Of a stretch of 64,000 bases of DNA, positions 35,037 through 58,270 are shown piece after piece. The notes under the pieces were generated by a model. That model had not been told where the DNA came from. It ran no database searches and saw only the letters and a program-made list of their open reading frames with translations. This stretch comes from Eledone cirrhosa. Its lineage: Eukaryota. Position numbers and translations under genes: made by a program. The stretch lies in contig OZ024740.1 in assembly GCA_964016885.1 (NCBI GenBank), positions 212,350,001 through 212,414,000 on the forward strand, in the 5' to 3' direction. The stretch's first letter is position 1. Each line of letters starts with the position of its first letter.

Positions 35037-35121
35037 TAGTAGTGTTCGATGTTGTGATAATGGTTAGCAGGGATGTGTGTGCGGACAGCAACCTGTTGAC
35101 AGTTCAAATGGCTATTAAGAT

Positions 35122-35199
<78 letters not shown>

Positions 35200-35309
35200 C
35201 AGAGTAATTCGTGGTAGCGGGATGGTCAGTAGGAATGTGTCTGTAAGGAGTGGGGGGGGGGTATTTTAGCATGTCAAAAGATATTTTTCAGCTTTTGTCT
35301 TATACGGAG

Positions 35310-35346
<37 letters not shown>

Positions 35347-35595
35347 AGTCTCTTTGTATGTTAATGTACGCGTGTGTATGTGTGTGTGTGTATATATGTG
35401 TGCGTGTGTGTGACAGAATGTGTGTGTGGGGGGACCAGTATTTTTTCCCCCTGGTAAAATGGTGTACATTATTCGATATATTGAGTAAAATCGATTCTCT
35501 CAATTGAGTAATATTTTTTTAAAAGCCTTATTGGTTTTCATGTAATATATATTCGACCGACAGCTACAAACACACGCATCATCTTTGTTTTTCTT

Positions 35596-35639
<44 letters not shown>
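31580..35639 (+). repeat. Composite satellite, ~0.98-kb unit, 4 full units plus a partial, each with (TATC)n and three (TG)n tracts
   Basis: ctcaattgagtaatatttttttaaaagcc at 31580, 32557, 33523, 34499 and 35499. Periods of 977/966/976/1000 differ mainly in microsatellite length. Confidence 0.97.
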
Positions 35640-35858
35640 ATCCATCTCTGGGATGGACACACGCGTATAACTTGCTGAGTAAGTTCTGTTTAAATTTCTA
35701 TAGAAATTCTTGTCTGATAACTTTAATTTTTGTACCATTTTGTAGAGGGACTGCCAGGTCAAACTTTGATCTGGTCAGTCTCTCAAAATATTCTACGCCT
35801 TTAGGCGAAATAGTTAAAAAAAAAGTTTTTTCTTGTTGAAAAGTCAATATTTTTTTAA

Positions 35859-37667
35859 ATGGCCGAAGCTTCTTCACCAAAATTCGAAGGAGGAAAGGGG
35901 AAGATGAACTTACAGCTTCCCCCTGCCACTGTCACAGTAGCAGAGGTCAAGAAGATAGGTCAGCCAGAGGAAGGATTTTCTCCACCTGTTGACCGACAAC
36001 TTGACGTTGCCATGGCAACAAACCAAAGAACCAGCGGCACCAGCAACAGCAACAACAACAACAACAATGCGACGGACGAAAACAACACCAATAACAATAA
36101 CAACAACAACAAGACCAATAACTGTGATAACAACAACAATGATAACAACAACACCACCAACTACAACAGCAACACAAACAAACAAAAATTTCTCCATCGC
36201 CGAGACGGCAAGGAAAACCCTCGACTATCTGCCAGTAGATATAACCAAAGCGAAGAAGCTACTGGCAGATGCCAAAAAATATATAGTGTACGGGGAAAAT
36301 GGTTCATTCACGGTCCATTCCCCCCCCCCCCCCCCGGGAACTAAAAAGCCAGAGACTCCTAAACACTGTCATGTTTAGGACAATCTCGAATAAAAGCAAA
36401 AATCCAGCTCAACCATCACAGAGTGAGATAGAGCTGGTTTTAAAAGACGTCATGAAGGACATCACCTTCATTCAGAAGGATAGACTCTACGGGAGTCTAT
36501 CCATTCTCATGAAGGACAGGGACACAGCAGTGAAACTGTCCATCAAACCAATCGCATCCACCGCATACACCTTCTACCCTACGTACATGGGTAGAAGAAG
36601 ACAAAAAATAAAAATCCACACCATCCTGCCGATTATGGACATATGGTGGGTTTTGACAGGTTTCCTGGACCTGGATGATGACACGCTGGTGTCCATGGGA
36701 AAGGCATCGGGTGACGCGTTCAGTGGAACGACCCTCGAACTTGTAGTTCAAATGAGGCCCGAAAGGATCGCCCAGATCCCTGAACGCGTCATACTGGATG
36801 ATCAAACTTTCATCAACATTACCGTTGAGGGTAGGCGGCCCTCGTGTTACCTCTGCGGAACCAGAGGTCACCTGAGGGCTGTCTGTCCCCAACTTAATAA
36901 GAAAACCCCAATCCTGCCTACACCACCAACAACTGCAAAACCAACACAATCACCACAACTACCACTACAAAAACAACCACCACAGCTCAAACCAAAACAA
37001 AACAATGTCCAACCCATCCCCCCCCCCCCACTAAAAAAAAAAATAATTTCCAAAACACCCGCACCGCAAACACAACCCGAAAATATACCCCTCCCTTCCA
37101 ACGCGGAAAATGACCCTAGTTCGTCGTCAGACGAGAGGAGCACTTCCACACAATCAAAAGAAAAAAAAGAAAACACACCTCAGACACACAAATGAAAACA
37201 ACCCCTCCCCAAAACATAACACTGACACCAACACAAAAGAGCTCACAACAACAGCAAACAAAAAACACCACACAAAAACAAAAACATGCATACACATACA
37301 TAAACACAAGAAACAAAAAACTGTTAAACATTGTGTACAACAACAATCTAATAAAAACCCAAGGGCCTAACTTCACCCAGGCAGGGGATTTCCCCCACCT
37401 CAAAATGATTAAGGCCCCACAGGACAACTATAAACTTTAAAAAACAACTTTAAAGAGGACGTGGGTCCCCCCCTGCGTCGGGCCCATTAACCGCGTCCTC
37501 CTAGAAAACTACCCCACCCCTCCCCAAACACCCACACAACTCCAAACTCCCCAACCACACAACACACTGATGCCCCTACACCTCCACAAACCACCACCCC
37601 ACCCAACAACCCATACCCCACCCTAATGGAAATTGTGCAGCCCGATACCCGGGACGCAGAGGGGTAA
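35859..37667 (+). pseudogene. Tx1 ORF1 (copy A), frameshifted
   Basis: Asn-rich N-terminus, RPSCYLCGTRGHLRAVCP, Pro/Thr-rich region, ends MEIVQPDTRDAEG*. Confidence 0.88.
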
Positions 37668-37691
37668 GTGCCTTTTCTCTTCACCACCAAC

Positions 37692-40600
37692 ATGGCCATG
37701 CTAAGAGTAGGCTGTTTAAATGCGCGTGGCCTGGGCTCAACTCGGAAGCAAGCAATGCTTCTAAATGACCTCAGGTCACAACGTATAGATGTGATGGTTA
37801 TTTGCGAGGCCCGGATCAGCAACGTGCGACAGCTGGCCCCCACCTTTGATGACTTTGAGATGCACGCATCTCTCTGTCAGCCCGGAGGTGGGGGTGGGGT
37901 TGTCGTTCTGCTGCAAAAACATCTGGGTCTCGCAACACAGATGGTACATTTGGACCCGGAGGGTCGACTAGTGGTTCTGGACCTTGGCAGTGGTAAAGGC
38001 GGAGCGTTTAGGTTGGTAGCCGCCTACGGCCCTTTCGGGTCAATGCGGCCGGACTTCTTCCATCGTCTGGAGACTTTTCTAGGGACGTCCCGCTCCTTGC
38101 TATTAGTGGGGGACTGGAATGGTATCCTAGATGCACGCTGGGACTACGTAGGGGCCTGTCCCGATAGAGAGGGGTGTAATAGCCTCAAAGGGTTAATCGG
38201 TCGATTTGACCTGGCCGATAGATATCGACTAGATTTTCCGACTGCGTCAACCTGGACTTGGGCAAATCGTAGCGGATCATCTAGGTCGTACCTAGATAGG
38301 TTCTTATTTAGAATTAAGGATAAGGACTTTTTAAGTTGTCCAAAAATGCGCATGGTTGGCTATTCAGACCACAAGTTAGTGACCTGCATGGTCAACCTTG
38401 ACAGAACTCATAGACATGGACCCGGTTACGGGAAGCTCAACTTGTCCTTACCGGCAAGTAAGGCTTACAGGGACCGGATTAGCACTTTAGTTAAGGAGCG
38501 GTTGACGGGCGCCATCGTCAACAGCAGGTGGTGCGGATCTCTCAAAAGAGAGATTAGAGTAGTCTCTATAGAATTTAGTAAGGAGTTAGCCTCAAATAGA
38601 AATAGGAAGGAAAGGGAGTTGGTAGATAGTGTAGAAGAGGCAATTAGAAGCGGCGACGTGGCCAGAGTGCTAGCGTCGAGAACGGCCCTGGGCCAGTTCT
38701 TCGACGCGAAACACGAAGGCTGCATCGTCCGAAGCAAAATACGTGCTCTGGGAAACGAGGGGACCAAAGTTGTTAGCTGGGCCCGCGTGACAGAAGCCAA
38801 AAAGAGGGAGCAGATCCACTATCCGGTCTTTGCGAGACCAGGAAGGACGGATGATCCTTGAACCTAAGCAGATGTGCGAGGCTTTTCAAAAGCACTTTGC
38901 CGGATTGTTCGGAAGGGGCGGGGAGCCGGTTGGGGAGGTGGACTTCGGTCCATACCTCGACGGCCTGCCGCGTCTCTCGGACAGGGAGGCGAAGCCCTGC
39001 GAGGAGCAGATTTCAGCCGCTGAGATAGATGACGTGCTGAGCCAATGCGGCAAACGCAAATCCCCGGGTCTCGATGGTCTTCCATACGAACTATATATAG
39101 CTATGCCGGACTTGTTCCCCGATCTCCTCGAGGCGGTCTACTGCAACTGGCAACAGAACGGGAGAATTCCCTGTGCTGTGACCAAGGGCGTAGTCACGCT
39201 AGTGAGGAAGGATGAGAACAAGGGGGACGATATAAATAATTTCAGGCCCATAACTCTGCTAAATACAGAGTTACAGATTTTGGCCAAGGTGCTAGCAAAG
39301 AGGTTGGCGCTTGTCGTGGGTAACCTGGTGAGAGATACGCAGACATACATGTGCTATCCCGTCCAGGTCCATCCACGACAACCTCCACATCATACGATAC
39401 ATCATAGAGAGGGTTGGGAACGAACCCGGCTTTGGTGGGGCCCTGATCAACTTGGATCAATCTAAGGCATTCGATAGGGTCGACCATGGTTACCTGGATG
39501 CGGTGCTAGCGGCGGCAGGCTTCGGACCCGTTTTCAGGGGTTGGATCCCTTCCATGCACAGCAGCCGCATCTGCTCTAGGGTCAAGGTGAACGGCTACCT
39601 CTCGGAGCCGTTCGAAATCACGCGGTCCATCCGACAGGGGTGCCCTCTCTCCTCCCTTCTGTATGTAATGACTCTAGAGCCACTGCTGCGGAAGTTGGAG
39701 TTGTTGCAGGGCATCCCGTTGGAATCGGGATTGCGGAAAGCGGTGTCAGCCTACGCCGATGACGTAACAGTAATGGTGTCAACGTCCTCGGAAATCGGGG
39801 CGATCGGCACCTTACTGGAGGAGTACGAAAGGTTTACAGGGGCTAAGCTGAACCGGGACAAGTCGATCGGTCTGCAACTCGGCACGTGGAGGGGCAGATC
39901 GATGCCCTCCGATGGCGTCGTCGGGCGCTGGACGGAGGGCCCGGTGAAGTTGCTCGGGGTCTGGTTCGGACCAGCCCTCCAGGTGGAGAAGAACTGGGGT
40001 GAGGTAACGAACAGGGTGTTTGCACTGACCCAGAAGTGGGCCGAGTGCAAACTGTCCCTGAAAGGTCGGGCGGAGGTGGCGAACACTTATATAGTGTCCG
40101 TCATCTACTACTTCCTGACCGTTGTGCCTTGCCCAAGGGAAACGCTAGCCAAAATGGAGCGCGCACTCTTCCAATTCCTTTGGAAGAAGCGGGCTCCTAT
40201 GGTGAGGAGATCCATCTGCTGTCAACACCCTTCGAAAGGAGGGCTGGGGATGCCGTGGCTAATGATACGTAAACACGCATTAAGGCCACGGCACCTTCAG
40301 GTATTCCTCTCCGGTCAACCGGTGTGGGCCCCGTTTGTGAGGCGAGCCTTTCCCAGACTCGTCTCACTCACCGAGCTGCAATCCTGGGTCAAGCAAAGAC
40401 CGAGAAAACTGGGCGCCTGGCACACCGAGTGTGCCCAGGCGCTCACGGCTCTCTGGCAGGCGGACCCGGCTGTCAGTGGAGAATCCACCTCGTCATTCTA
40501 TAGAGGGCTGGTGGTTAGCAGGTGCGACGACCGCCTCGAAGAAGCCCTAGGCATGGAGGAAGACGAGCTGGCCAACCTGTTCGGTAAGACATTCAGTCCG

Positions 40601-41134
40601 GGACCCATGGATAACTTCCAGAGGTCCCTGGCCTGGCAATGCTACAGAAGGGCTCTGCCCATTCGAGAAAGCCTCTACAGACACGGGCGCCCGGGTAGGG
40701 AGCCCTCGAAAAAGATCTGTCCCAGATGCGTGTGCGACGAGGAAACCGTTGCACACGCATTGGTACACTGCTCGGACATTGCGGATCTGTGGGGCTATGT
40801 CGAACAACTGCTGTCAAGGGTGGGACCTATCCGGTTGACCACCGAGTCTATTGTAACGATCAAGCCGTCTCCCCTCTTCAAAAACGAAGAAGAGGCGGTG
40901 TTTCTGTGCGTAATAGCCATGGCGAAAGAGGTTGTATGGTGGACGCGTCTGAAAGGACTGAGGTCAGACACCTTTCTCTCTGGCCAACAACTGGTCCGTT
41001 TCTTCCGATATCATTTCGGAAGAAGGATCAGGATGGAGAGAGAGGTGCTGCACCCCAGCCGTTTTTATGAAAGATGGGTGAAAGTGGTGAGAATGGCCCG
41101 TGTGAATGGGCCTTCACTCTACATCAGACTATAG
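37692..41134 (+). pseudogene. Tx1 ORF2 (copy A), two frameshifts
   Basis: CLNARGL, GDWN, SYLDR, SDHK, KSPGLDGLP, FRPITLLN, KAFDRV, RQGCPLS, AYADD, CPRC...ETVAH across three ORFs. Confidence 0.92.
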
Positions 41135-41398
41135 GTGAGGAAGATGAAAGACCAAGGGAGCACCCCTTCTCTGTGCTCCTGAGGAAGGGTTGCACACTCT
41201 TTTTTTTCGGGGGTGTGTGCGACCCCCCAAGGTGCCTCCTCTCTATTGAGGATTTTGTTATAAATTTTATTCTGTTATATTTTATTTTATTTTTATATTT
41301 TGTTATTGCCTCCTCCTTATTGAGGACGCCTTGTTTTATAAACTCCCCCCATTGTACTTGTCCCACTTTTGATGCCCTGGTGGCAAATAAAAGAAACA

Positions 41399-41441
<43 letters not shown>

Positions 41442-41672
41442 TAATCTAGCTGTCGTCTGTTCTGCAGTGTGGATGTCATTCACTTCGCACAGAAGTTTTG
41501 TTCAAATTTATTGAGGAAATTTTGTGAGTTCAAACTTAATTTTGATACAATTGTGTAGCTTGACCCTCCGTCTGAACTGTCAGGCGGTGGGTCAGCTCAT
41601 CTTTACCCCTCCTAGAGGTGAAAAACCTGTTTTAAAAAATTTTGTGTAAAAAATTTCAATCGTCTAACAGAA

Positions 41673-43553
41673 ATGTTAAACGCAGCGAACGAAAATAGTG
41701 GTGGGGGGACAGCGGTAAGAGTTGTAAGCTCGCACGCTTTAGTCCTCCCTTCCTTCCCAACTAACGTCATAGAGAAGGAAGGAAAAATGAAAATAAAAAC
41801 GGACGAATCTGCGGAGGAAAAAAAATTAAATGACGAAAACAACGAAAAAAAAAAATTTGAAAAATTGCATGACAATACTAATAACACAAACAAAGACACA
41901 ACAAACAAAAAAATAACAGTTGAAAATAACATAATATCAGAAAACAAAGCAGACGACAAGATTTCTTTTGCACAGAAAACAAAGAAATCTTTGACTTATA
42001 TAGCGGAAAACATTTCAGATGTGGTACGAAGGATCACGGACGCAAAACAATACATAAGTGAAGGTGAGAATGGTATTTTATTGGTAAAAATGCCTCAAGA
42101 ATTCACGAAAGACATTGAAAGCCGAACGGTCAAGTTTCGGACCATCAACAACAGTACAAAAAAACCTGAACAGCCTTCTCAAGCAGATATCAAAACAGTA
42201 CTCGCAGAAGTACTGAATGAAACAACTTTCATAAGAAAAGACAGACTGTATGGAAGCCTAGCAATTATCATGAAGAACGAATCGGCGGCAAAAAAATGTG
42301 CTTTGTCACCGATTCGTTCGAAAAATTTCACCTTTTATCCATCTTATATGGGGAAAAAAACTCAACGCATATGGCTGGATGCAATGATGCCAGATGTGGA
42401 CTACTGCTGGCTCATAGCTGGCTTCATCGATCCAGTGAATGACAACGTGATTTCCATTGGGAAAACCACAGGCAATGCGTTCAGTGGAACAGGTATAGAG
42501 CTGGTAGTACAAATGAAGCCTGAACGCATCGCCCAAATACCCGACAGAATCCTATTAGAGGACCACGGGTATATAAACATTAGCGTGGAGGGGAGAAGGC
42601 CGTCCTGCCATATCTGTGCAGGCAGAGGGCACCTGAAGGCCGCTTGTCCCCAACTCAACAAAAAGAAAACCCTGCTACCAACACCAGCTCCACCACCACC
42701 ACCACAACAGATAAACAAACAACAAAACTCAGTCCCACCCAACCCGTCCCTCAGTAACACCACAACACCACCACAACACAAACAGTCACAACACATTACC
42801 CCAAAACAAAATACAGGCCCACCCAACCTCTCACTCAATAAAACAACACAACCACCGCAGACACAACACACAACACAGTCTAACATAGTGACATCCATCT
42901 CCCCCACAAAGAAAACCAACACGGAAACATTACCAGCAAACATACCTCTTCCCTCCAACACTGAAGATAACCCAACGAATTCGGAGGAAGAAACGGAGTC
43001 CTTCAGACAGATTAAAAGGAAAAAAAGAAAACATGTGCAAAACACACAAGGACAAACAACCCCCACCCAAATCGCAACACAATCTAACAAAACAGAAAAC
43101 ACCCCTCCAGCAACAAACAAAACCAAACCTGCCCCTCCCCTCTTCGAAACACTCACACCATCGGAAAAAAAGACATTACACTATACTTACATCAACAGAA
43201 ACAATAATAAATTAAATGAACTCATATACAATAATCCTTCGGTACAAACCGAAGGTGTAAACTTTGTTTCATCAGAAAACCACCCACATTTAAAACTAAT
43301 AAAAATCCCAATGAACCTCTACCAAAAACTAAAAAAGGATTTTAAGGAGGACGTAGGACCACCCTCTGTCAAACCCATAAACCGCGTCCTACTAAAAAGC
43401 TTTCCCCCTCCCCTTCCCCTCCCCAACACAACTCCAAACACCCCAACCCCACCACACACCGACGACCCCACACCACCACAAGACACCCCTTCACCCAACA
43501 CCCCCGACCCCATGGAAGTCGTGCAACCCGAACCCCGGGAAGCGGAAAGGTAG
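41673..43553 (+). CDS. Tx1 ORF1p (626 aa, zinc-knuckle nucleic-acid-binding protein)
   Basis: Intact ORF with CHICAGRGHLKAAC (CX2CX4HX4C); homologous to the ORF1s of the other copies. Confidence 0.92.
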   Translation: MLNAANENSGGGTAVRVVSSHALVLPSFPTNVIEKEGKMKIKTDESAEEKKLNDENNEKKKFEKLHDNTNNTNKDTTNKKITVENNIISENKADDKISFAQKTKKSLTYIAENISDVVRRITDAKQYISEGENGILLVKMPQEFTKDIESRTVKFRTINNSTKKPEQPSQADIKTVLAEVLNETTFIRKDRLYGSLAIIMKNESAAKKCALSPIRSKNFTFYPSYMGKKTQRIWLDAMMPDVDYCWLIAGFIDPVNDNVISIGKTTGNAFSGTGIELVVQMKPERIAQIPDRILLEDHGYINISVEGRRPSCHICAGRGHLKAACPQLNKKKTLLPTPAPPPPPQQINKQQNSVPPNPSLSNTTTPPQHKQSQHITPKQNTGPPNLSLNKTTQPPQTQHTTQSNIVTSISPTKKTNTETLPANIPLPSNTEDNPTNSEEETESFRQIKRKKRKHVQNTQGQTTPTQIATQSNKTENTPPATNKTKPAPPLFETLTPSEKKTLHYTYINRNNNKLNELIYNNPSVQTEGVNFVSSENHPHLKLIKIPMNLYQKLKKDFKEDVGPPSVKPINRVLLKSFPPPLPLPNTTPNTPTPPHTDDPTPPQDTPSPNTPDPMEVVQPEPREAER

Positions 43554-43586
43554 GTCTCTACACTCTCCTTTGGCTCTGCCGCCCAC

Positions 43587-46500
43587 ATGGATGTGTTAAG
43601 AGTAGGATGTTTGAATGCACGTGGCCTGGGCTCAACTTGGAAGCAAGCAAAGCTTCTAAATGACCTCAGGTCATGTAGTATAAATGTAATGGTTATCTGT
43701 GAGACTCGAATCAGCGTCATGCGGCAGCTGGCCCCCACCTTCGATGACTTTGAGGTGCATGCATCTCTCTGTCAACCTGGAGGTGGGGGTGGGGTTGTCG
43801 TGCTGCTGCAAAAACACCTGGGTCTTGCCGTACAGGTTGTGCACTCGGACCCGGAGGGTCGTTTGTTGGTGCTAGACGTTGGCAGTAGTGAAAGTGCGGC
43901 CTTGAGACTGGTCGCCGTCTACTCCCCTTTCGGAGCTGAACGGCCCGACTTCTTCCAGCGTTTGGAGACTTTTCTGGGAACGTCGCGTTCCCTGCTTCTA
44001 GCGGGGGATTGGAATGACATCCTAGATGCACGTTGGGACTATGCAGGAGCATGTCCTAATAGAGGGGGGTGTAACAGCCTCAAGGGGTTACTCGACCGTT
44101 TTAACTTGGTCGATAGATATCGACTAGATTTTCCAACTGTGCCTACCTGGACTTGGAGAAACCACAGTGGTCAATCTAGATCGTACTTAGATAGATTCTT
44201 AGTTAGAAGTAAGGATAGGGACATATTAAGCTGTCCAGAAATGCGCACGGTTGGCTACACGGATCACAAATTAGTGACCTGCGTGGTCAATCTCGAGAAA
44301 ACACATAGACAGGGTCCCGGTTACTGGAAACTTAATTTGTCTTTACCGGCAAAAGAGACTTACAGAAACCGGATTAGCAGATTAGTTAAGGAGAGGTTGA
44401 CGGGTGCAATCGTCAACAACCGATGGTGGGCATCTCTCAAAAGAGAGATTAGAACAGAATCAATAAGTTATAGCAAGATGTTAGCTGCCAATAGGAATAG
44501 AAACGAGAAAGAATTAACAGGTAAATTAGAAGAGGCAATCAAGAGCGAAGATGTGGCCAGAGTGCTGGCATCGAGGACGGCCTTGAACCAGTTTTTCGAT
44601 GCAAAGCATGAAGGCTGCGTCATTCGAAGTAAAATACGTGCTCTAGGTAATGAGGGGGCCAAAGCCGTTGGATGGGCCCGCGTGACAGAAGCTAAAAGTG
44701 GAAATCGATCCACCATCCGGTCGTTGCAAGACGAAGATGGACGAGTGATCCGGGAGCCTAAGCAGATGTGCGAGGCCTTTCAAAAGCACTTTGCCCGATT
44801 GTTCGGGGGAGGCGAGGGTCCGGGCCGGGGCGTGGATTTCGGTCCATACCTCGACGGCCTGCCGCGTCTCTCGAACAAAGAGGCAGAGTCCTGCGAGGGA
44901 CCAATCTCGGCTGATGAGATCGGAGATGCGCTGAGCCAATGCAGCAGACGCAAATCTCCAGGTCTTGATGGTATACCTTACGAACTTTATTTAGCAATGC
45001 CGGTCTTCTTCTCCGAACTCCTCGAAGCGGTCTACTGCAATTGGCAGCAGAACGGGAGAATTCCTTGTTCTGTAGCCAAGGGCGTAGTCACGCTGGTGAG
45101 GAAGGACGAGAACAAGGGGGATAGTATAAATAATTTTCGGCCCATAACCCTGCTAAACACAGAGTTAAAGATTTTGGCCAAGGTGTTAGCAAAGAGGTTG
45201 GCGCTTGTCGTGGGTGGCCTGGTGGGAGATGCGCAGACATGTGCTATCCCATCCAGGTCCATTCACGATAACCTCCACCTCATGCGATACATCATAGAGA
45301 GGGTTGGCAACAAACCCGGCTTCGGTGGGGCCCTGATCAACTTGGATCAGTCTAAGGCCTTCGATAGGGTCGACCATGGTTACCTGGATGCGGTGCTAGC
45401 GGCGGCTGGGTTCGGTCCTGTTTTCAGAGGCTGGATCACTGCCCTACATAGCAACCACATCTGTTCTAGGATCAAGGTGAACGGCTACCTTTCGAAGCCG
45501 TTCGAAATCACACGATCCATTCGACAGGGGTGCCCTCTCTCCTCCCTTCTGTACGTATTGACTCTCGAGCCTTTACTGAGGAAGTTGGAGTTGTTGCAGG
45601 GTATCCCCCTGGAACCAGGATTGAGCAAAGCGGTGTCGGCCTACGCCGATGACGTAACAGTAATGGTATCAACCGACTCGGAGATCGAGGCGATCGGTAC
45701 CTTACTGGAGGAGTACGAAAGGTTGTCAGGAGCGAAACTGAACCGGGAAAAATCCATCGGGCTGCAACTCGGAACGTGGAGAGGCAAACCGATGCCTCCT
45801 GACGGTGTCGTCGGACACTGGACGGAGGGCCCGGTAAAGTTGCTTGGGGTCTGGTTTGGACCGGACCTCCAGGTGGAAAAGAACTGGAACGAGGTTACGA
45901 ACAAGGTGTTTGCACTAACCCAGAAATGGGCCAAGTGTAAGCTGTCCCTAAAAGGCCGGGCGGAGGTGGCGAACATTTACATAGCGTCCGTCACTTACTA
46001 CCGCCTGACTGTCGTGCCTTGCCCTAAGGAAACACTCACCACCATGGAACGCATGCTCTTCCAATTTCTTTGGAAGAAGCGTCCTCCTATGGTGAGAAGA
46101 TCCATCTGCTGCCAACAACCTTCGAAAGGAGGGCTGGGGATGCCGTGGTTGATGATGCGTAGGCACGCATTAAGGCTACGGCACCTACAGGTATTCCTCA
46201 CTGGTCAACCGGTGTGGGCTCCGTTCGTGAAACGAGCCTTTCCGAGACTCGTCTCACTCACCGAGCTACAGTCCTGGGTCAAGCAAAGATCCGGAAAACT
46301 GGGAGACTGGCACACTGAGTGTGCTCAGGCGCTCAGGGCTCTCTGGCAAGCGGGCCGGGCCATCGGTGGAGAATCCACCTCATCATTCTATAGAGGGCTG
46401 GTGGCTAGCAGGGGCGATGACACCCTTGGAGAGTCGCTGGACATGGAAGAAGACGAACTGGCCAGCCTGTTCGGTAGGACTTTCGGCCCAGGACCAATGG

Positions 46501-47024
46501 ACAACTTCCAGAAGTCACTGGCCTGGCAGTGCTACCGAGGGGCTCTACCCGTTCGAGAGAGGCTCTACAGACACGGGCGCCCGGGCAGGGATCCCTCAAA
46601 AAAGATTTGCCCTAGATGCGTGCGTCACGAAGAAACCGTGGCGCACGCATTGGTGCAATGTCCGGGCGTGGCTGATCTGTGGGGCTACGCCGAACAACTG
46701 CTGTCGCGGGTGGCGCCGATTAAATTGACCGCCGAGTCCGTGATGACAATCAAACCGCCTCCCCTCTTCACAAAGGAAGCAAAGGCGGTTTTTCTGTGCG
46801 TAATAGCCATGTTGAAAGAGGTTGTTTGGTGGACACGATTGAAAGGTCTGAGGTCAGGCAACTTCCTCTCTGGCCATAGTCTGGTCTACTTCTTCCGATA
46901 TCACTTCGGAAGAAGGATAAGAATGGAGAGAGAGGTGCTTGGCCACAGGCAGTTTTATGAAAGGTGGGTGATAGTGGCGAGAATGGCTCGTGTAAATGGG
47001 CCTTCTCTGTATACCATCCTGTAG
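43587..47024 (+). CDS. Tx1 ORF2p (1145 aa: AP endonuclease, reverse transcriptase, C-terminal CCHC)
   Basis: Intact ORF with NARGL, GDWN, YLDR, TDHK, GPGYWKLN, KSPGLDG, LDQSKAFDRVDH, QGCPLS, YADD and CPRC-x4-ETVAHALVQC. Confidence 0.97.
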   Translation: MDVLRVGCLNARGLGSTWKQAKLLNDLRSCSINVMVICETRISVMRQLAPTFDDFEVHASLCQPGGGGGVVVLLQKHLGLAVQVVHSDPEGRLLVLDVGSSESAALRLVAVYSPFGAERPDFFQRLETFLGTSRSLLLAGDWNDILDARWDYAGACPNRGGCNSLKGLLDRFNLVDRYRLDFPTVPTWTWRNHSGQSRSYLDRFLVRSKDRDILSCPEMRTVGYTDHKLVTCVVNLEKTHRQGPGYWKLNLSLPAKETYRNRISRLVKERLTGAIVNNRWWASLKREIRTESISYSKMLAANRNRNEKELTGKLEEAIKSEDVARVLASRTALNQFFDAKHEGCVIRSKIRALGNEGAKAVGWARVTEAKSGNRSTIRSLQDEDGRVIREPKQMCEAFQKHFARLFGGGEGPGRGVDFGPYLDGLPRLSNKEAESCEGPISADEIGDALSQCSRRKSPGLDGIPYELYLAMPVFFSELLEAVYCNWQQNGRIPCSVAKGVVTLVRKDENKGDSINNFRPITLLNTELKILAKVLAKRLALVVGGLVGDAQTCAIPSRSIHDNLHLMRYIIERVGNKPGFGGALINLDQSKAFDRVDHGYLDAVLAAAGFGPVFRGWITALHSNHICSRIKVNGYLSKPFEITRSIRQGCPLSSLLYVLTLEPLLRKLELLQGIPLEPGLSKAVSAYADDVTVMVSTDSEIEAIGTLLEEYERLSGAKLNREKSIGLQLGTWRGKPMPPDGVVGHWTEGPVKLLGVWFGPDLQVEKNWNEVTNKVFALTQKWAKCKLSLKGRAEVANIYIASVTYYRLTVVPCPKETLTTMERMLFQFLWKKRPPMVRRSICCQQPSKGGLGMPWLMMRRHALRLRHLQVFLTGQPVWAPFVKRAFPRLVSLTELQSWVKQRSGKLGDWHTECAQALRALWQAGRAIGGESTSSFYRGLVASRGDDTLGESLDMEEDELASLFGRTFGPGPMDNFQKSLAWQCYRGALPVRERLYRHGRPGRDPSKKICPRCVRHEETVAHALVQCPGVADLWGYAEQLLSRVAPIKLTAESVMTIKPPPLFTKEAKAVFLCVIAMLKEVVWWTRLKGLRSGNFLSGHSLVYFFRYHFGRRIRMEREVLGHRQFYERWVIVARMARVNGPSLYTIL

Positions 47025-47238
47025 GTAAAGAAGTAAAGGAGAGGGGAACACCTTCTCCATGTGCTCCCCGGGCAAAGGATTGCACACTTTTTCGGGGGTG
47101 TGTGCAACCCCCATCACGTCCCCTCCCTTTTGAGGTTATTTTCGATTATTTTCATGTTACACCCTTTTTACTCGATTATATGTAAACTCCCCCTTTGTAT
47201 TTGTCCCTTCTTTTTATGCCTTTATGGTAAATAAAGAA

Positions 47239-47308
<70 letters not shown>

Positions 47309-50300
47309 ATAATCTAGCTGTCGTCTGTTCTACAGCGTAGAAGTAATTCACTTCGCGCAGAAATTTTGTTCAAATTTATTGGGGAAATTTTGTAAGTTCA
47401 AATTTAATTTTGATACTTGTGTGTAGCTTGACCCCCCCCCCCCCCCGTCTTAACTGTCAGGCGGTTGGTCAGCTCATCTTTACCCCTCCTAGGGGTGAAA
47501 AACCTGTTTTTAAAAATTTTGTGGCAAAAAAAATTTCAATCGTCTGACAGAAATGTTAAACGAAGCGAACGAAAATAGTGGTGGGGGGACAGCGGTAAGA
47601 GTTGTAAGCTCGCACGCTTTAGTCCCCCCCTTCCTTCCCAACTAACGTCATAGAGAAGGAAGGAAAAAATAAAATAAAAACAGACGAATCTGCGGAGAAA
47701 AATGACGAAAACACAAATCTGGACATGGATTCCAACAACGAAAAAAAAAATTTGAAGAATTGCATGACAATATTAATACCACAAACAAAGACACAACAAA
47801 CACAAAAATAACATTTGAAAACAACATCATAACAGAAAGCAAAGCAGACGACAAAGTCAACACCAACAAGATTTCATTTGCACAAACAACAAAGAAATCT
47901 TTGACATATATACCTGAAAATATTTCAGATGTGGCACAAAGAATCACAGACGCCAAACAATACATAAGTGAAGGAGAGAATGGTATTTTATCGGTAAAAA
48001 TGCCTCAAGAACTCACCAAAGACATTGAAAGTCGAACGGTCGTGTTCCGCACCATCAACAACACTTCTAAAAAACCTGAACAGCCAACTCAAACAGATAT
48101 CAAAACAGTACTCACAGAAGTACTTAATGAAACCACTTTAATAAGAAAAGACAGACTGTATGGAAGCCTAGCAATTATTATGAAGAACGAATCGGCGGCA
48201 AAAAATGTGCTTTGTCACCGATTCGTTCGAAAAATTTTACCTTTTATCCATCTTATATGGGTAAAAGAACTCAACGCATATGGCTGGATGCAATGATGCC
48301 AGATGTGGACTACTGCTGGCTCATAGCTGGCTTCATCGATCCAGTGAATGACAACGTGATTTCCATTGGGAAAACCACAGGCAATGCGTTCAGTAGAACA
48401 GGTATAGAGCTGGTAGTGCAAATGAAGCCTGAACGTATCACCCAAATACCCGACAGAATCCTATTAGAGGGCCACGGGTATATAAACATTAGCGTGGAGG
48501 AGAGAAGGCCGTCCTGTCATATCTGTGCAGGCAGAGGGCACCTGAAGGCCGCTTGTCCCCAACTCAACAAAAAGAAAACCCTGCTATCAACACCAGCTCC
48601 ACCACCACCACCACAACAGATAAACAAACAACAAAACTCAGTCCCACCCAACCCATCCCTCAGTAAAACTACACCACCACCACAACACAAACAGTCACAA
48701 CACATTACCCCAAAACAAAATACAGGCCCACCCAACCCCTCACTCAATAAAACAACACAACCACCGCAGCGACAACACACAACACAGTCTAACATAGTGA
48801 CATCCATCTCCCCCACAAAGAAAACCAACACGGAAACATTACCAGCAAACATACCTCTTCCCTCCAACACTGAAGATAACCCAACGAATTCGGAGGAAGA
48901 AACGGAGTCCTTCAGACAGATTAAAACGAAAAAAAGAAAACATGTGCAAAACACACAAGGCCAAACAACCCCCACCCAAATGTCAACACAATCCAACAAA
49001 ACACAAAACACCCCTCCAGCAACAAACAAAACCAAACCTGCCCCTCCCCTCTTCGAAACACTCACACCATCCGAAAAAAAGACATTACACTATACTTACA
49101 TCAACAGAAACAATAATAAATTAAATGAACTCATAAACAATAATCCTTCGGTACAAACCGAAGGTGTAAACTTTGTTTCTTCAGAAAACTACCCACATTT
49201 AAAATTAATAAAGATCCCAATGAACCTCTACCAAAAACTAAAAAAGGATTTTAAGGAGGACGTAGGACCACCCTCTGTCAAACCCATAAACCGCGTCCTA
49301 CTAAAAAGCTTTCCCCCTCCCCTTCCCCTCCCCAACACAACTCCAAACACCCCAACCCCACCACACACTGACGACCCCACACCACCACAAGACACCCCTT
49401 CACCCAACACCCCCGACCCCATGGAAGTCGTGCGACCCGAACCCCGGGAAGCAGAAAGGTAGGTCTCTACACTCTCCTTTGGCTCTGCCGCCCACATGGA
49501 TGTGTTAAGAGTAGGATGTTTGAATGCACGTGGCCTGGGCTCAACTTGGAAGCAAGCAAAGCTTCTAAATGACCTCAGGTCATGTGGTATAAATGTAATG
49601 GTTATCTGTGAGACTCGGATCAGCGTCGTGCGGAAGCTGGCCCCTACCTTCGATGACTTTGAGGTGCATGCATCTCTCTGTCAACCTGGAGGTGGGGTGG
49701 GGTTGTCGTACTGCTGCAAAAACACCTGGGTCTTGCCGTACAGGTTGTGCACTCGGACCCGGAGGGTCGTTTGTTGGTGCTAGACGTTGGCAGTAGTGAA
49801 GGCTGCGTCATTCGAAGTAAAATACGTGCTCTAGGTAATGAGGGGGCCAAAGCCGTTGGCTGGGCCCGCGTGACAGAAGCTAAGAGTGGAAATCGATCCA
49901 CCATCCGGTCGTTGCAAGACGAGGATGGACGGGTGATCCGGGAGCCTAAGCAGATGTGCGAGGCCTTTCAAAGCACTTTGCCCGATTATTCGGGGGAGGC
50001 GAGGGTCCGGGCGGGGACGTGGATTTCGGTCCATACCTCGACGGCCTGCCGCGTCTCTCGAGCGAAGAGGAAGAGTCCTGCGAGGGACCAATCTCGGCTG
50101 ATGAGATCGGAGATGCGCTGAGCCAATGCAGCAGACGCAAATCTCCAGGTCTCGATGGTATACCTTACGAACTTTATTTAGCAATGCCGGTCTTCTTCTC
50201 CAAAATCCTCGAAGCGGTCTACTGCAATTGGCAGCAGAACGGGAGAATTCCTTGTTCTGTAGCCAAGGGCGTAGTCTCGCTGGTGGGGAAGGACGAGAAC

Positions 50301-52379
50301 AAGGGGATAGTATAAATAATTTTCGGCCCATAACCCTGCTAAACACAGAGTTAAAGATTTTGGCCAAGGTGTTAGCAAAGAGGTTGGCGCTTGTCGTGGG
50401 TGGCCTGGTGGGAGATGCGCAGACATGTGCTATCCCATCCAGGTCCATTCACGATAACCTCCACCTCATGCGATACATCATAGAGAGGGTTGGCAACAAA
50501 CCCGGCTTCAGTGGGGCCCTGATCAACTTGGATCAGTCTAAGGCCTTCGATAGGGTCGACCATGGTTACCTGGATGCGGTGCTAGCGGCGGCTGGGTTCG
50601 GTCCTGTTTTCAGAGGCTGGATCACTGCCTTACATAGCAACCACATCTGTTCTAGGATCAAGGTGAACGGCTACCTTTCGAAGCCGTTCGAAATCACACG
50701 ATCCATTCGACAGGGGTGCCCTCTCTCCTCCCTTCTGTACGTATTGACTCTCGAGCCTTTACTGAGGAAGTTAGAGTTGTTGCAGGGTATCCCCCTGGAA
50801 CCAGGATTGAGCAAAGCGGTGTCGGCCTACGCCGATGACGTAACAGTAATGGTATCGACCGACTCGGAAATCGAGGCGATCGGTACCTTACTGGAGGATT
50901 ACGAAAGGTTGTCAGGAGCGAAACTGAACAGGGAAAAATCCATCGGGTTGCAACTCGGAACGTGGAGAGGCAGACCGATGCCTCCCGACGGTGTCGTCGG
51001 ACACTGGACGGAGGGCCCGGTAAAGTTGCTTGCTGTCTGGTTTGGACCGGACCTCCAGGTGGAAAAGAACTGGGACGAGGTTACGAACAAGGTGTTTGCA
51101 CTAACCCAGAAATGGGCCAAGTGTAGGCTGTCCCTAAAAGGCCGGGCGGAGGTGGCGAACATTTACATAGCGTCCGTCACTTACTACCGCCTGACTGTCG
51201 TGCCTTGCCCTAAGGAAACACTCACCACCATGGAACGCATGCTCTTCCAATTTCTTTGGAAGAAGCGCCCTCCTATGGTGAGAAGATCCATCTGCTGCCA
51301 ACAACCTTCGAAATGAGGGCTGGGGATGCCGGGGATTCCTCACTGGTCAACCGGTGTGGGCTCCGTTCGTGAAACGAGCCTTTCCGAGACTCGTCTCGCT
51401 CACCGAGCTGCAGTCCTGGGTCAAGCAAAGATCCGGAAAACTGGGAGACTGCACACTGAGTGTGCCCAGGCGCTCAGGGCTCTCTGGCAAGCGGGCCAGG
51501 CCATCGGTGGAGAATCCACCTCATCATTCTATAGAGGGTTGGTGGCTAGCAGGGGCGATGACACCCTTGGAGAGTCGCTGGACATGGAAGAGGACGATCT
51601 GGCCAGACTGTTCGGTAGGACTTTCGGCCCGGGACCAATGGACAACTTCCAGAAGTCACTAGCCTGGCAGTGCTACCGGGGGGCTCTACCCGTTCGAGAG
51701 AGGCTCTACAGACACGGGCGCCCGGGCAGGGATCCCTCAAAAAAGATTTGCCCTAGATGCGTGCGTCACGAAGAAACCGTTGCGCACGCATTGGTGCAAT
51801 GTCCGGGCGTGGCTGATCTGTGGGGCTACGCCGAACGACTGCTGTCGCGGGTGGCGCCGATTCAATTGACCGCCGAGTCCGTGATGACAATCAAACCGCC
51901 TCCCCTCTTCACAAAGGAAGCAAAGGGGGTTTTTCTGTGCGAAATAGCCATGTTGAAAGAGGTTGTTTGGTGGACACGATTGAAAGGTCTGAGGTCAGGC
52001 AACTTCCTCTCTGGCCATAGTCTGGTCTACTTCTTCCGATATCACTTCGGAAGAAGGATAAGAATGGAGAGAGAGGTGCTTGGCCACAGGCAGTTTTCTG
52101 AAAGGTGGGTGATAGTGGCGAGAATGGCTCGTGTAAATGGGCCTTCTCTGTATACCATCCTGTAGGTAAAAAAGTGAAGGAGAGGGGAGCACCTTCTCCA
52201 TGTACTCCCCGGGCAAAGGATTGCACACTTTTTCGGGGGTGTGTGCAACCCCCATCACGTCCCCTCCCTTTTGAGGTTATTTTCGATTATTTTCATTTTA
52301 TATCCTTTTTACTCGATTGTACGTAAACTCCCCCTTTGTATTTATCCCTTCTTTTTATGCCTTTATGGTAAATAAAGAA

Positions 52380-52380
<1 letters not shown>
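47309..52380 (+). mobile_element. Tx1 subfamily B copy 2, degraded with a 720-bp ORF2 deletion
   Basis: Highly similar to B1, with ORF1 frameshifts. Junction ...gtagtgaa|ggctgcgtc at 49800 removes the B1 equivalent of 43893-44612. Confidence 0.95.
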
Positions 52381-52438
<58 letters not shown>

Positions 52439-55400
52439 AGACGTGTGTAAATTCGCGGAGAAGTTTCCGTTAATTTATGTAAGGAAAAAACGTAAGTTTT
52501 TAGTTAAATTTTATATCATTGTGTAACTTGACCACCCGTCTGGACCTTCAGGTGGTGGGTCAACTCATTTTCGCCCCTTCAGTGGCGGAATATCCATTAA
52601 AAAAATTTTTCTCCATCGAATCTTGTAAAATTTTGATTACGTTATGAACGCTGCGTCCAACGATAATGGTGGTGGAGAGGCGGTAAGACTACAAAGCTCG
52701 CAGTCAACAACGTCTTCTTCACTAGATACTATAGAGATGGAAAGACAAAATGAAAATAAAAAAACGAATTCACATCCAAACAACACAAATGACACCAAAC
52801 AGCTCAATGACAACAAAAATAACAGCAACACCAATAATGATGATAAAAGCAACAATGATAACAACAACAAAGAAAAAAATAAAGACAACGCCAATAACAC
52901 CAGCATCAAAGACAACAACAACACCAAGTAAAATACGGATGATACCAACATCGGTGACAACAAGAATAACAACAACAATAACAACAATAATGACAACACC
53001 ACCAATACGGATTCCACAAAGAAACCAAAAAATCTCCTTTGCGGAGAAAGTTCAAAAGAAAGAACAATTGATATATCTCGACATAAAAAATGCTGAACAA
53101 CTTTTAAAGGACGCTAAGAGATATGTCACTTTCGAAAAAAATGGTGCTTTCAGCATCAATTCTCCGGTAGAAATACGCAAGGAAACTGCTCTCAAAACGA
53201 TAGTTTTTAGGACAGTTTCCAATTCTACCCGAAAACCAGTCCAATTGTCACAGAAAGATATTGAACTGGTTTTCAAAGATTCAATGAATGATATTGCATT
53301 CATTCAAAGAAGCAAACTTTTTTGGAGTATTTCGGTACTGATGAAGGATCAATTGACGGCCCAAAATTACTCTGTGTCGCCAATTGTATCCAACCTGTAC
53401 ACCTTTTTCCCTACATACATGGAAAAAAGGACACAAAAGATCAGAATCACAAGTGTCACACCAAAGGTGAACATATGGTGGATACTGTGCGGCTTCATCA
53501 ATTTTGATGAAGACAGAATACTGTCAGTAGGCAAGTCCCCCAGAGATGTATTCAATGGGACTAGCATTGAAGTTCTGGTGCAAATGAGCCCATAGCGAAT
53601 AGCTATCATCCCACAGCGTGTACTCCTGGACGGACTCACCTACATAAACTTTTCGGTTGAGGGTAGGCGGCCTTCATGTTACCATTGCGTTAGCAGGGGT
53701 CACCTGAGGGCTTCCTGTCCTAAACTAATGAACCAAAAAAAGGCTCTTATGCCGACACCCATCAAAACAACACAACCACCAACACCACCACAACAACAAC
53801 AACACCAACACACAAAAATAACCACAACAAACACAGTCCCACCCAACCTCACTCCACCTAAAACCACTGCAAAATCACATACAGACACAACAGCTCCCCA
53901 AGACATACCCCTCCCCAATCACACAGACGATACAACAGATGAGGCTATCTCGCCATCACCCAGTGAAGACGAGGGAGAACCCCATCGCTCGAAAAGAAAG
54001 AAAAGACATCACAAAAGCAAAAAACCAGCAAACACTACCACAAACATACAACCACCAACACAAACAACAAAAATATCAGAAACAAAACCCCCACCTCCTG
54101 AAAACAAAATACCTACAACAAAACAAAAGCACGCACAAGAACTACAGACAAAAACAAACACAACACAAGAAAATTACACTTACACTTACATAAACACTGA
54201 AAACAAAACACTAATGGAGACCATCACGAACGACCCTTCGGTTTTCACCGAAGGGAAAACTTTCGCCCACTCTATAAAAAATAGCAAAAAACTGAACCTA
54301 AAACTAATTAGGGTCCCTATACAAACTTATAGGTCCCTAAAAGAAACATTTGAGAAGGATGTGGGGAATTCCTGCGTGAAACCACTCAACCGCGTCCTTC
54401 TCAAATGCCTCCCCACCCCAGACACCCCCATCCCACCAGACCCCACCCCACCAAACATCTGCGTCCCCACCCCGCCGGAAACCACCACCCATCCAGACAA
54501 CCCCTCCAACACCCCCATGGAAATCGTGCGGCCTGGTCCCCAGGAGGCGAAGTGTGAGTGATCTCTTTTCCTCTTTTAACTTTTCAGCACCAACATGGCC
54601 AATATAAGAATTGGATGTGTGAACGTACGCGGCCTGGGGATGCCCTGGAAACAGGGCAAACTCTTAAACGACCTCAGGTCGCACAGTTTGGATGTGGTAG
54701 CCATTTGCGAGTCCAGGATCCACGGCGAGCGACAGCTGGCCCCCATCTTCGATGACTTTGAGATCTATGCATCTCTCTGTCAACCGGGGGGTGGGGGCGG
54801 AGTTGCCGTTTTGCTGTGGAAACACCTGGGCCTCGTAACACAGACGGTACATCTGGACCCGGAGGGTCGACTGGTGGTCCTAGACGTTGACGGTAGTGAA
54901 AGTGGAGCCTTCAGGCTGGTGGCCGCATATGCCCCATCCGGGACACCGCGGCCAGACTTCTTCAAACGTCTAGAGACTTTTCTGGGAACGTCCCGCTCCT
55001 TGCTTTTAGTGGGGGACTGGAATGGAATCCTAGATGCACGTTGGGACTATGTGGGAGCATGTCCCGAAAAACGGGGGTGTAACAGCCTCAAACAGTTAAT
55101 CGACCGATTTGACCTGGCCGATAGATATCGACTAGATTTTCCGACTGCGCCACTGTGGACGTGGAGTAATCGTAGCGGAACATCTAGATCGTACCTAGAT
55201 AGGGTTCTAGTTAGAAATAAGGATAGGGACATGTTAAGCTGTCCACAAATGTTCATGGTTGCCTATTCAGATCACAAACTAGTGACCTGCATGGGCAACC
55301 TTGATAGAACCCATAGACAAGGACCCGGCTACTGGAAGCTGAACTTGTCGTTACCGACAAGCAAAGCCTACAGTAGACGGATTAGCACTTTAGTTAAATA

Positions 55401-58270
55401 GCACTTGACAGGGGCCATTGTCAACAACAGATGGTGGTACGCTCTCAAGAGGGCAGTTAGATTAGACTCGATAGTTTTTAGTAAAGAATTAGCGTTAGAT
55501 AGAAATAGAACCGAGAAGGAACTGGTAGATAAAGTAGAAGAGGCAATTAGAAGTGGCAACGTAGCCAGCGTGCTAGCAACGAGAACGGCCTTGGACCAGT
55601 TCTTCGACGCAAAGCACGAGGGCTGCGTTATCAGAAGCAAAATACGTGCTCTGGGAAACAAGGGAGCCAAAGCTGTTAGCTGGGCCCGAGTGACGGAGGC
55701 AAAAAGTGGCAACAATCCACGATTCGGTCTTTGAAGGACCAAAACGGACGCGTGATACGTGAGCCGAAGCAGATGTGTGCGGCTTTTCAGCGGCACTTTG
55801 CTCGGCTGTTCGGGGGGAGCGGCGCGCCGGGAGAGGCTATGGATTTCGGTCCATACCTCGACGGCCTACCGCGACTCTCGGACAGTGAGGCGAAGTTCTG
55901 CGAAAAGCCGATTTCAGCCACTGAGATAGGGGACGCGCTGAGCCAATGCGGCAAACGCAAATCTCCAGGTCTCGACGGTCTCCCCTACGAATTTTACGTA
56001 GCAATGCCGGACTTATTCTCCGGTCTCCTGGAAGCGGTCTACTGCAACTGGCAACAGAACGGGAGAATTCCCAGTTCTGTAACCGGGGGCGTGGTCACAC
56101 TAATCAGGAAGGACGAGAACAAGGGGGATGACATAGGCAACTTCCGGCCCATAACTCTGCTAAACACAGAGTTACAGATTTTGGCCAAGGTGTTGGCAAA
56201 GAGGCTGGCGCTTGTCGTCGAGAACCTGGTGGGAGAAGCGCAGACATGCGCGATCCCGACCAGGTCCATACACGACAACCTCCACCTCATGCGATGCATC
56301 ATAGAGAGGGTAGGGTGTAAACCCGGCTTCGGTGGGGCCCTGATCAACTTGGATCAGTCTAAGGCTTTCGATAGGGTTGACCATCGTTACCTGGATGCGG
56401 TGCTCGAGGCGACAGGCTTCGGACCCGTGTTCAGGGGCTGGATTGCTGCAATGCACAACAGCAACATCTGCTCAAGGGTCAAGGTGAACGGTTACCTCTC
56501 GGAGCCGTTCCATATTACGCGATCCATTCGACAGGGATGCCCTCTCTCCTCCCTTCTGTACGTACTGACTCTCGAGCCACTACTGCGGAAGCTGGAGCTA
56601 TTGCAGGGCATCCCTCTGGAACCGGGACTGCTGAAAGCGGCGTCGGCCTACGCCGACGACGTAAAAGTAATGGTGTCGAGCGCCTCGCAAATCGAGGAAG
56701 TCGGCACCTTACTAAAGGAATACGAAAGTCTCACAGGAGCGAAGCTGAACCGGGACAAGTCCATCGGTTTGCAACTCGGATCGTGGTGAGGTAGACCGAT
56801 GCCTTCCGATGGCGTCGTCGGACGCTGGACGGAAGGACCGGTAAAGCTGCTCGGGGTCTGGTTTGGTCCGGACCTCCAGGTGGAGAAGAACTGGAACGAA
56901 GTGACGGCCAAGGTATTTTCACTCACCCAGAAGTGGGCCGAGTGCAAACTATCCTTGAAAGGTCGAGCGGAGGTGGCGAACACTTTTATAGCGTCCGCCA
57001 TCTACTACCGCTTGACCGTCGTGCCTTGTCCAGCCAAAACGCTCGCCAAAATGGAGCGCGCCCTCTTCCGATTCCTTTGGAAGAGGCGGGCTCCTTTGGT
57101 AAGAAGATCCATCTGCTGCCAACACCCTTCTAACGGAGGGCTGGGGATGCCGTGGTTGACGATGCGCAAACACGCGCTCAGACTGCGGCATCTCTACGTA
57201 TTCCTCACCGGACAACCGGTGTGGGCCCCGTTCGTGAGGCGAGCCTTCCCACGAATCGTCTCGCTGACCGAGCTGCAGTCCTGGGTCAAGCAGAGACCGA
57301 GGAAAATGGGCGACTGGCACATCGAATGTGCTCAGGCGCTCACAGCCCTCTGGCAGGCGGACCCGGCGATCAGTGGAGACTCCACTTCGTCATTCTATAG
57401 AGGGTTGGTCCGCAGAAAGTGCGACGACGCGCTCGGTGAAACTCTAGTCGTGGAGGAAGATGAACTGGCCAGTCTGTTCGGTAGGACCCTCCGCCCGGGA
57501 CCGATGGACAACTTCCAAAAGTCCCTGGCCTGGCAGTGCTACCGAGGAGCTCTACCAGTTCGAGACAAGCTCTACAGACATGGGCGCCCGGGCAGGGACC
57601 CTGCAAAAAAGATCTGTCCGAGGTGCGTGCTAGACGAAGAAACCGTCGCGCACGCATTCATACACTGCCCGGGCGTCACTGACCTGTGGGGCTATGTAGA
57701 ACGACTATTGTCGCGGGTGGGACCAATCCAGTTGACCACCGAGTCCATTGTCATGATCAAACCGCCACCCTCCTTCAAAAACGAAGGAGAGGCGGTTTTC
57801 CTTTGTGTGATAGCTATGGCGAAAGAGGTTGTATGGTGGACAAGGTTGAAAGGGCTGAGGTCAGACACCTTTCTCTCCGGCCAACAACTGATTCTTTTTT
57901 TCAGATACCACTTTGGAAGAAGAATCAGGATGGAGAGAGAGGTGCTGTACCCCAGCAAGTTTTATGAAAGGTGGGTGAAAGTGGCGAGAATGGCCCGAGT
58001 GAATGGGCCTTCTCTCTATATCAGCCTCTAGGTTGAGGAAAAGGAGGAGGAGAGGAAAGGAGTACAAGCTCTTCGTACTCCTGGAGATGAGGGTTGCACA
58101 TTTTTTTTCGGGGGTATGTGTTACCCATATAAACTGTCTCCCTCTATTGGGGAAAATCGACTAACTTTTAAATTCCATCTGTGATAACATTTTACACGTT
58201 TTTATTGTATGTAAACTTCCCCCTTTGTATTTGTCCCCTTCTTTTGTGCCCCTGTGGCTAATAAAGAAAT
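52439..58270 (+). mobile_element. Tx1 subfamily C copy 1, full length with stops and frameshifts
   Basis: ORF1 52644-54561 and ORF2 54595-58031 in fragments, same motifs as A and B. Confidence 0.95.

Follow-up and report, generated by a model that had tools for sequence, protein, structure and literature searches.

A conserved 5' splice-site consensus at the end of ORF1 in an octopod Tx1-like LINE and its possible use in removing ORF2

Introduction

In retrotransposons with long terminal repeats (LTRs), splicing can remove the catalytic genes from part of the transcripts. Drosophila copia has an intron of about 3 kb that covers all of POL and yields a spliced Gag RNA, and the plant Ty1/Copia element EVD makes a spliced RNA, shGAG, while its unspliced RNA is also protected by U1 (PMC5580714). 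Among long interspersed nuclear elements (LINEs), human L1 produces spliced RNAs known as SpORF2 (PMC2896524) and SpIREs, with SpIRE97/622 amounting to about 1.8% of full-length L1s (PMC5860796), and the introns of TART are antisense (PMC1636488). Here, we analyze a window of 64,000 nucleotides (nt) from Eledone cirrhosa (assembly GCA_964016885.1, contig OZ024740.1, positions 212,350,001 to 212,414,000, forward strand), in which copies of a Tx1-like LINE carry a 5' splice-site consensus at the end of their first open reading frame (ORF1).

Within the Tx1 clade, Kibi targets (TC)n and Koshi targets (TTC)n (PMC4494074). L1-Tx1 families have been counted as active in Octopus vulgaris, in a paper that makes no mention of splicing (PMC13282606). 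Our literature search, with subscription papers, Repbase reports and supplements largely outside its coverage, found no LINE with an intron spanning ORF2 or with a conserved donor at the ORF1 stop. Fixed genomic families of ORF1-only LINE derivatives do exist in the form of HAL1 (half-L1). An initial annotation of the window had proposed that all of ORF2 sits in a spliceosomal intron whose retention or excision sets the ORF1p:ORF2p stoichiometry. We confirm the observation behind that proposal, and its interpretation as an intron is partly supported.

Results

The donor consensus. Natural copies from the genome were sorted under our own labels into 18 subfamilies, including a sister clade of K, M, N, Q, R0 and R1, and one copy per subfamily (n = 18) entered the tree and the column statistics. 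At the end of ORF1, all 18 representatives carry GT(A/G)(A/G)GT; they have the same base at +1, +2, +5 and +6 and a purine at +3 and at +4, and the flanks vary. Scored against the 5' splice-site consensus MAG/GTRAGT, 17 of the 18 match at eight or more of nine positions and have the complementarity to U1 of a 5' splice site. The distance from the donor to the start of ORF2 is 27 to 46 nt. As a baseline, ORF2 columns as fixed as the donor number 31 of 223 at 4-fold sites (14%) and 14 of 74 at 2-fold sites.

Copies found by protein search, and not by the motif, had a donor of at least 8/9 in 69 of the 78 cases with a readable ORF2 start, two further loci without such a start being left out. The control set consisted of metagenome contigs with distant L1-clade relatives (24 to 42% identical); of its 80 loci, 40 had an ORF2 start that was readable and not a duplicate, and a donor of at least 8/9 was present in only one of these 40, away from its ORF1 stop. 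The donor match also exceeds chance within the window: between positions 35646 and 64000, 11 of 1061 stop triplets stand in a donor context of this quality, the element copies themselves counted.

The donor has been kept while its reading frame changed. Eleven subfamilies have it in phase 2, five (C, K, N, Q and R1) in phase 1, and two (H and R0) in phase 0; in these last two, ORF1 extends 9 to 12 codons past it and the hexamer holds no stop. It is likewise kept behind ORF1 tails that cannot be aligned and despite a 43-nt insertion just upstream (K versus M). The initial annotation had the donor overlapping the ORF1 stop in every copy, which holds for the window with the correction that in C the TGA overlaps the donor at +6 only. 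Among the A, I and J subfamilies, the donor is intact in 1415 copies; a change at +1, where G to A would be synonymous, occurs in 14, all of them scattered single variants and none amplified. A variant with A at +4, which fits the consensus better, is common to 13 of 21 B copies. A peptide trace of a phase-1 donor is seen in two ORF1 homologs from other sources, available as proteins only (one from Argonauta hians), which end in QGK and EGKS.

We regard the conservation of the donor as both well founded and unusual. Since LINEs have to copy their unspliced RNA, a donor that has persisted over tens of thousands of insertions, and while the frame shifted repeatedly, implies a function. The sequence pattern supports selection for a 5' splice site at the ORF1 end, and the donor is very probably a real U1 site.

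The candidate acceptor and the stop beyond it. The six donors and six TAG sites reported for the window were found at their positions with the letters reported, and joining them regenerates the stops in A, B and C, as claimed. That ORF2 always ends in TAG is true of the window and of 17 of the 18 subfamilies, the exception being M, which ends in TAA; D is represented by a TAA variant that came from a TAA search, TAG copies of D also having been seen. In the (ATCT)n group, a single pattern with TAG finds 12,261 ORF2 ends genome-wide, versus 147 ending in TAA or TGA. The site ranks third in pyrimidine content among the 62 conserved YAG columns of ORF2, with pyrimidines at 10 to 13 of 16 tract positions. 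Near -31, a coding-determined T-n-A is the sole branch-point-like sequence visible, and a poly(A) signal follows 186 to 256 nt beyond the ORF2 stop. A hairpin over the ORF2 stop was ruled out as the cause of TAG/GT (z -1.2 to +1.4 in eight sequences).

A stop in the frame of ORF1 lies at most three codons past the predicted join in 9 of 15 subfamilies (A, B, C, E, H, K, N, Q and R0), compared with 7 of 30 unused frames at the same distance (Fisher p 0.019, on related rows that are not independent). This tally left out M, S and R1 and treated C, D, L and E' together under a single key of the untranslated region (UTR). K, N and Q, all in phase 1, each have a stop in the phase-1 frame, written in different letters. 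In the N/Q/R clade, the first nine UTR bases differ, yet a stop in the frame of the donor is always present. R0 moved from phase 1 to phase 0 onto a latent stop, with the phase-0 stop in 5/5 copies and the phase-1 stop lost in 3/5, and R1 has kept its phase-1 stop in 4/4. The co-variation of donor, acceptor and stop that had been suggested as a check is visible as changes of phase and stop in K, N, Q, R0, R1 and H, but not in six further subfamilies, discussed below, in which the stop is missing.

In Q (loci L361 and L410), the nine bases after the ORF2 stop differ at one position from the first nine bases of the putative intron, so that ORF1 would end almost alike with or without the join. 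These post-stop bases may be a duplication of the donor. The ORF1 tail predicted after splicing is distinct from the unspliced one in H, N and Q.

Search for processed copies. Precisely intron-less genomic copies, which the initial annotation had suggested searching for, were absent from nine probes covering A, B, C, D, E, H, I, J, K, L, N, Q and R; these were exact-match patterns, by which some diverged copies are missed, and M, having no predicted join, stood outside them. The B probe returned 21 matches, all unspliced, while both a gap-pattern probe for A, B, C and E and the K probe returned none. Probes for A, I and J gave 4 and 14 matches, which were point or indel variants and one internal deletion. 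Two unrelated repeats were returned for D, L and E (control, one), and the two matches for H included no true spliced copy. The N/Q/R probe gave no spliced copy, intron letters coming first in the 18 of 20 matches listed, and a probe for internal acceptors gave two matches, one unrelated and one imprecise (L203). Searches of ORF1 homologs for spliced C termini found none, and a search with the representative ORF1 gave 97 distant matches, among which the six inspected had no recognizable spliced tail. One ORF1 homolog of 603 amino acids lies on an ENA contig of 2,209 nt, about the size of an ORF1-only message, and its tail is of the unspliced form. When assembled contigs from four of six sequencing runs, none recorded as RNA, were aligned to B, the donor-to-TAG joint was not among the 15 joints listed of 97; contigs of runs X1 and X5 pass through the acceptor without a break, and those of X5 also through the donor. 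As rare forms are dropped from contigs, this weighs neither for nor against the splice.

Layout of the window. The window from about 35.6 kb onward consists of non-LTR elements that are stacked head to tail and split by (ATCT)n arrays (Table 1). The B element is intact; A, the second B copy and C are frameshifted, and the copies with donors at 60212 and 62931 have an internal deletion. The putative introns measure 3471 nt in A, 3475 in B, 2707 in the second B copy, 3478 in C and 474 in each of the two deleted C copies.

Table 1. Coordinates of the LINE copies and their parts in the window
Feature	Positions	Strand	Remarks
Intact full-length Tx1-like LINE, subfamily B	41441..47238	+	Flanked by two (ATCT)n arrays
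ORF1 of B, 626 amino acids, stop TAG	41673..43553	+	One CCHC knuckle; C-terminal half of low complexity; no Pfam match
5' splice-site consensus AAG/GTAGGT of B	43547..43555	+	Boundary 43549/43550; ORF1 stop inside
Inter-ORF spacer of B, pyrimidine-rich	43556..43586	+	Spacer 70-82% C/T across all representatives
ORF2 of B, from ATG at 43587	43587..47024	+	APE endonuclease, reverse transcriptase, candidate C-terminal zinc-binding region
Candidate 3' splice site of B	47005..47026	+	Pyrimidine-rich coding tract, ORF2 TAG, then GT; boundary 47024/47025
3' UTR of B	47025..47238	+	Purine-rich start; two predicted hairpins; AATAAA at 47230
(ATCT)n target array	47239..47306	+	Further arrays at 41399-41438, 35597-35636 and 52380-52435
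Subfamily A copy	37661..41136	+	Donor 37664, phase 2; TAG ends at 41134
Second B copy, with ORF2 deletions	49456..52167	+	Donor 49459; TAG ends at 52165
Subfamily C copy	54551..58033	+	Donor 54554, phase 1; TAG ends at 58031
Internally deleted C copy	60209..60687	+	Donor to TAG 474 nt; local duplicate at 62928-63406

The (ATCT)n target is regenerated at each insertion, in the window (35597-64000) as at loci L164 to L183, and for this reason different subfamilies are stacked head to tail. The sister clade stacks likewise in (ATT)n. Element A begins at the last (ATCT)n run of a tandem array at 31580-35640, built of a G/T-skewed unit of about 970 bp, each with such a run, and a near-perfect tandem repeat with a 6-bp period lies at 24482-24717. 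Base composition jumps at the B donor, from 40% A and 16% G in ORF1 to 25% A and 29% G in ORF2 (41673-47024). The two hairpins predicted in the 3' UTR (47045-47115) are common to six subfamilies, with two-sided change in 4 of 22 predicted pairs, and are a possible recognition signal for ORF2p. The ORF2-deleted C form has three genome copies, all on the contig labeled C1: a tandem duplication at 58270-63640 of the window and a third copy (L222) about 0.48 Mb away. A mobile ORF1-only family derived from them was ruled out, the three lying within 0.5 Mb.

Element class and subfamilies. ORF2 scores above the cut-off for PF03372 (endonuclease) and PF00078 (reverse transcriptase [RT]) and matches an L1 endonuclease structure at E 0.00027; for its C-terminal zinc-binding region, PF13966 is borderline, at 26.9 bits against a cut-off of 27.5. 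The CCHC knuckle of ORF1 reads C-x2-C-x4-H-x4-C, with zf-CCHC look-alikes scoring 0.92. Flanks are (ATCT)n in the window and at the genome loci fetched, and (ATT)n for K, M and N. Placed by domain content and targeting only, the element fits a Tx1-like, microsatellite-targeting LINE. Its ORF2 is 30% identical to a protein labeled "Transposon TX1 uncharacterized 149 kDa protein" and 63% identical to its nearest named homolog, from Argonauta hians, and homologs of ORF1 are found in Octopus species, which places the host among the octopods. Viral contigs contained no match to the element, and an ORF1 tail from O. bimaculoides had no match in this genome.

The LINE family is young and large. All 40 scored matches to the ORF1/ORF2 junction of B were 100% identical (40 scored among 1165 genome candidates). 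In the tree, 13 of 15 inner branches were strongly supported; ORF2 of the sister clade is 58 to 68% identical to that of B, and 4-fold distances reach 0.50 among 11 representatives. In subfamily H, ORF2 starts with ATA and not ATG in 10/10 copies (L102, L103, two in L104, L107, L109, L120, L121, L349 and L350), and this start overlaps the ORF1 TAG in the -1 frame. H is young and amplifying, and its ORF2 would be reached by reinitiation at a non-AUG codon or by a -1 frameshift.

Discussion

Our data establish a conserved donor at the ORF1 end of this LINE. Its use is read more tentatively: it is likely bound by the U1 small nuclear ribonucleoprotein (snRNP) and, in part of the transcripts of most subfamilies, may be spliced to the TAG at the end of ORF2, giving a predicted ORF1-only mRNA. 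Directly observed are the conserved donor and its persistence when the frame changed, the TAG, the stops close to the join and, about 200 nt further on, a poly(A) signal. From these we infer that U1 snRNP would bind at the ORF1 end, that some transcripts would be joined to the TAG with removal of the whole ORF2, and that this splice would have a role. In the spliced RNA, ORF1 would stop at the join or close to it, the 3' UTR would be short, and no exon junction would lie 3' of the stop. Such an RNA would encode no reverse transcriptase and, given cis-preference, would not be copied into the genome again; we propose this as an explanation for the lack of processed copies. In this scenario, M would have lost the acceptor at the end of ORF2 and kept the donor. 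We take partial, ORF2-removing splicing as the leading reading because only from the position of the donor would a splice do no harm to ORF1 and put no junction past its stop, and because the ORF2 stop is the last good acceptor ahead of the poly(A) signal.

Bicistronic LINEs are thought to make ORF1p in excess already at translation. For this reason, and because ORF1p works best in cis, an off-switch for ORF2 that would limit the share of nuclease- and RT-competent RNA, possibly by tissue, is a more likely role than setting the ORF1:ORF2 ratio or supplying extra ORF1p. The stoichiometry function put forward by the initial annotation is the weakest step in its argument, since L1 ORF1p prefers its own mRNA (PMC5860796). 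A fuller statement, which we hold a shade more tentatively still, is that in this octopod lineage the whole of ORF2 would have become a retained intron, that host splicing would choose between a bicistronic and a harmless ORF1-only mRNA, and that donor phase and downstream stop would have co-evolved.

Several observations weigh against splicing to the end of ORF2. The nine probes found no processed copy, even though the predicted join would lie about 250 nt from the 3' end. In subfamily M, with 5,531 ends, 99 of the first 100 listed are TAA and the donor is intact. A regenerated stop, claimed for each junction and present in the window, is lacking elsewhere in the family in D, L, E', T, I and J, six active subfamilies in which roughly 28 to 100 codons would be added after the join. 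TAG in 17 of 18 subfamilies is ordinary retention, as 24 of 74 2-fold columns show at most one change, within the neutral range. The pyrimidine tract is present as described, but it is coding sequence (G-P-S-L-Y-x-x-L) for hydrophobic residues found also in distant homologs, and the second AG 7 nt upstream, raised earlier as a caveat, is seen in 6 of 11 representatives. K and M no longer have G at exon position +1. Finally, a shift to phase 1 would also be favored because the unspliced ORF1 gains an immediate stop.

How much the absence of processed copies counts depends on mobilization in trans. L1 proteins, ORF1p included, favor their own mRNA (cis-preference) (PMC5860796), and SINEU was inferred to be mobilized in trans by Tx1-Mar (PMC4494074). 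The one ORF2-less form checked here, that of the deleted C copies in the window, has not spread beyond its three local copies.

Less probable than splicing, while still deserving serious weight, is a role of the donor as a U1 docking site without a terminal splice. Placed at the only noncoding spot in the middle of the RNA, it would block premature cleavage and polyadenylation or aid elongation and export of the full-length RNA, and the TAG/GT at the end of ORF2 would simply be inherited. Such a role fits the donor of M, kept without a TAG, as well as the lack of processed copies and the six subfamilies without a regenerated stop, and there is precedent in EVD, where U1 inhibits premature termination of the full-length RNA (PMC5580714). 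Of the 10 representatives with enough sequence, 8 do have poly(A) hexamers in the A-rich ORF1 less than 700 nt ahead of the donor, but their positions are not conserved and C and D have none. Between the donor and the ORF2 stop, there are only zero to two hexamers and thus little to protect downstream. Docking also leaves unexplained the stops that track the frame in K, N, Q, R0, R1, H and C.

An improbable alternative grants the motif no U1 function at all and sees in it an inherited stop-codon context, kept by shared ancestry. TAA, TAG or TGA followed by G is a strong terminator, GT(A/G)AG contains a stop codon by nature, and all subfamilies share one ancestor. Against this, the hexamer persists in phase 0 (H and R0) with no stop inside, it survives the insertion just upstream that separates K from M, column baselines put the neutral expectation of +1, +5 and +6 all being fixed at about 0.004, and the control set yielded the motif only once in 40 loci.

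Splicing mainly to an acceptor inside ORF2 is more improbable still: YAGs at, for example, ORF2 nt ~83, ~1841 and ~2807 are conserved in 10 or 11 of 11 representatives, M included, and one genomic L copy (L203, about 1500-1530) joins the donor to TTAG/G, the site at nt ~83, about 130 nt downstream, but this copy is the only one and is one base short of a precise splice, general probes (in which about half of possible acceptors are visible) found no foreign sequence after the A/I/J and H donors, and an in-frame ORF1-ORF2 fusion at nt ~83 would be open to phase-2 subfamilies only, with loss of the first endonuclease strand.

If splicing to the end of ORF2 is real, cephalopod tissues would have a single switch by which to silence the nuclease and RT of an abundant young LINE, readable in RNA-seq from one junction, and such a switch would matter for claims that LINEs are active in octopus neurons. 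Otherwise, the donor would be a rare and clear-cut example of a LINE with a U1 element that acts independently of splicing, with M as a natural comparison. A copia-like ORF2 switch, if true, would be new for LINEs, none having been found in the published literature searched, whose coverage was incomplete.

Among the known systems, Kibi and Koshi share with the octopod LINE an APE-RT ORF2, a CCHC ORF1 and insertion into microsatellites, whereas the octopod LINE targets (ATCT)n and its sister clade (ATT)n. HAL1 resembles the predicted product as an ORF1-only LINE derivative; it differs in that no amplifying ORF2-less octopod family was found, the deleted copies being local. Human L1 is, like this element, an L1-clade LINE with splice sites in its own RNA, functional there and predicted here. 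Its splices fall in the 5' UTR and ORF1, keep ORF2 and leave genomic copies, while in the octopod LINE ORF2 would be removed whole and no genomic spliced copy was found. Copia and EVD, like the octopod LINE, have a donor where the structural ORF ends. Both are LTR elements with a single gag-pol ORF, in which the splice is needed for an excess of Gag and the RNAs have been demonstrated, whereas the octopod element is a bicistronic LINE whose spliced RNA is only predicted. By analogy, the octopod splice would work like the Gag splice of copia, in an element that is not itself a copia.

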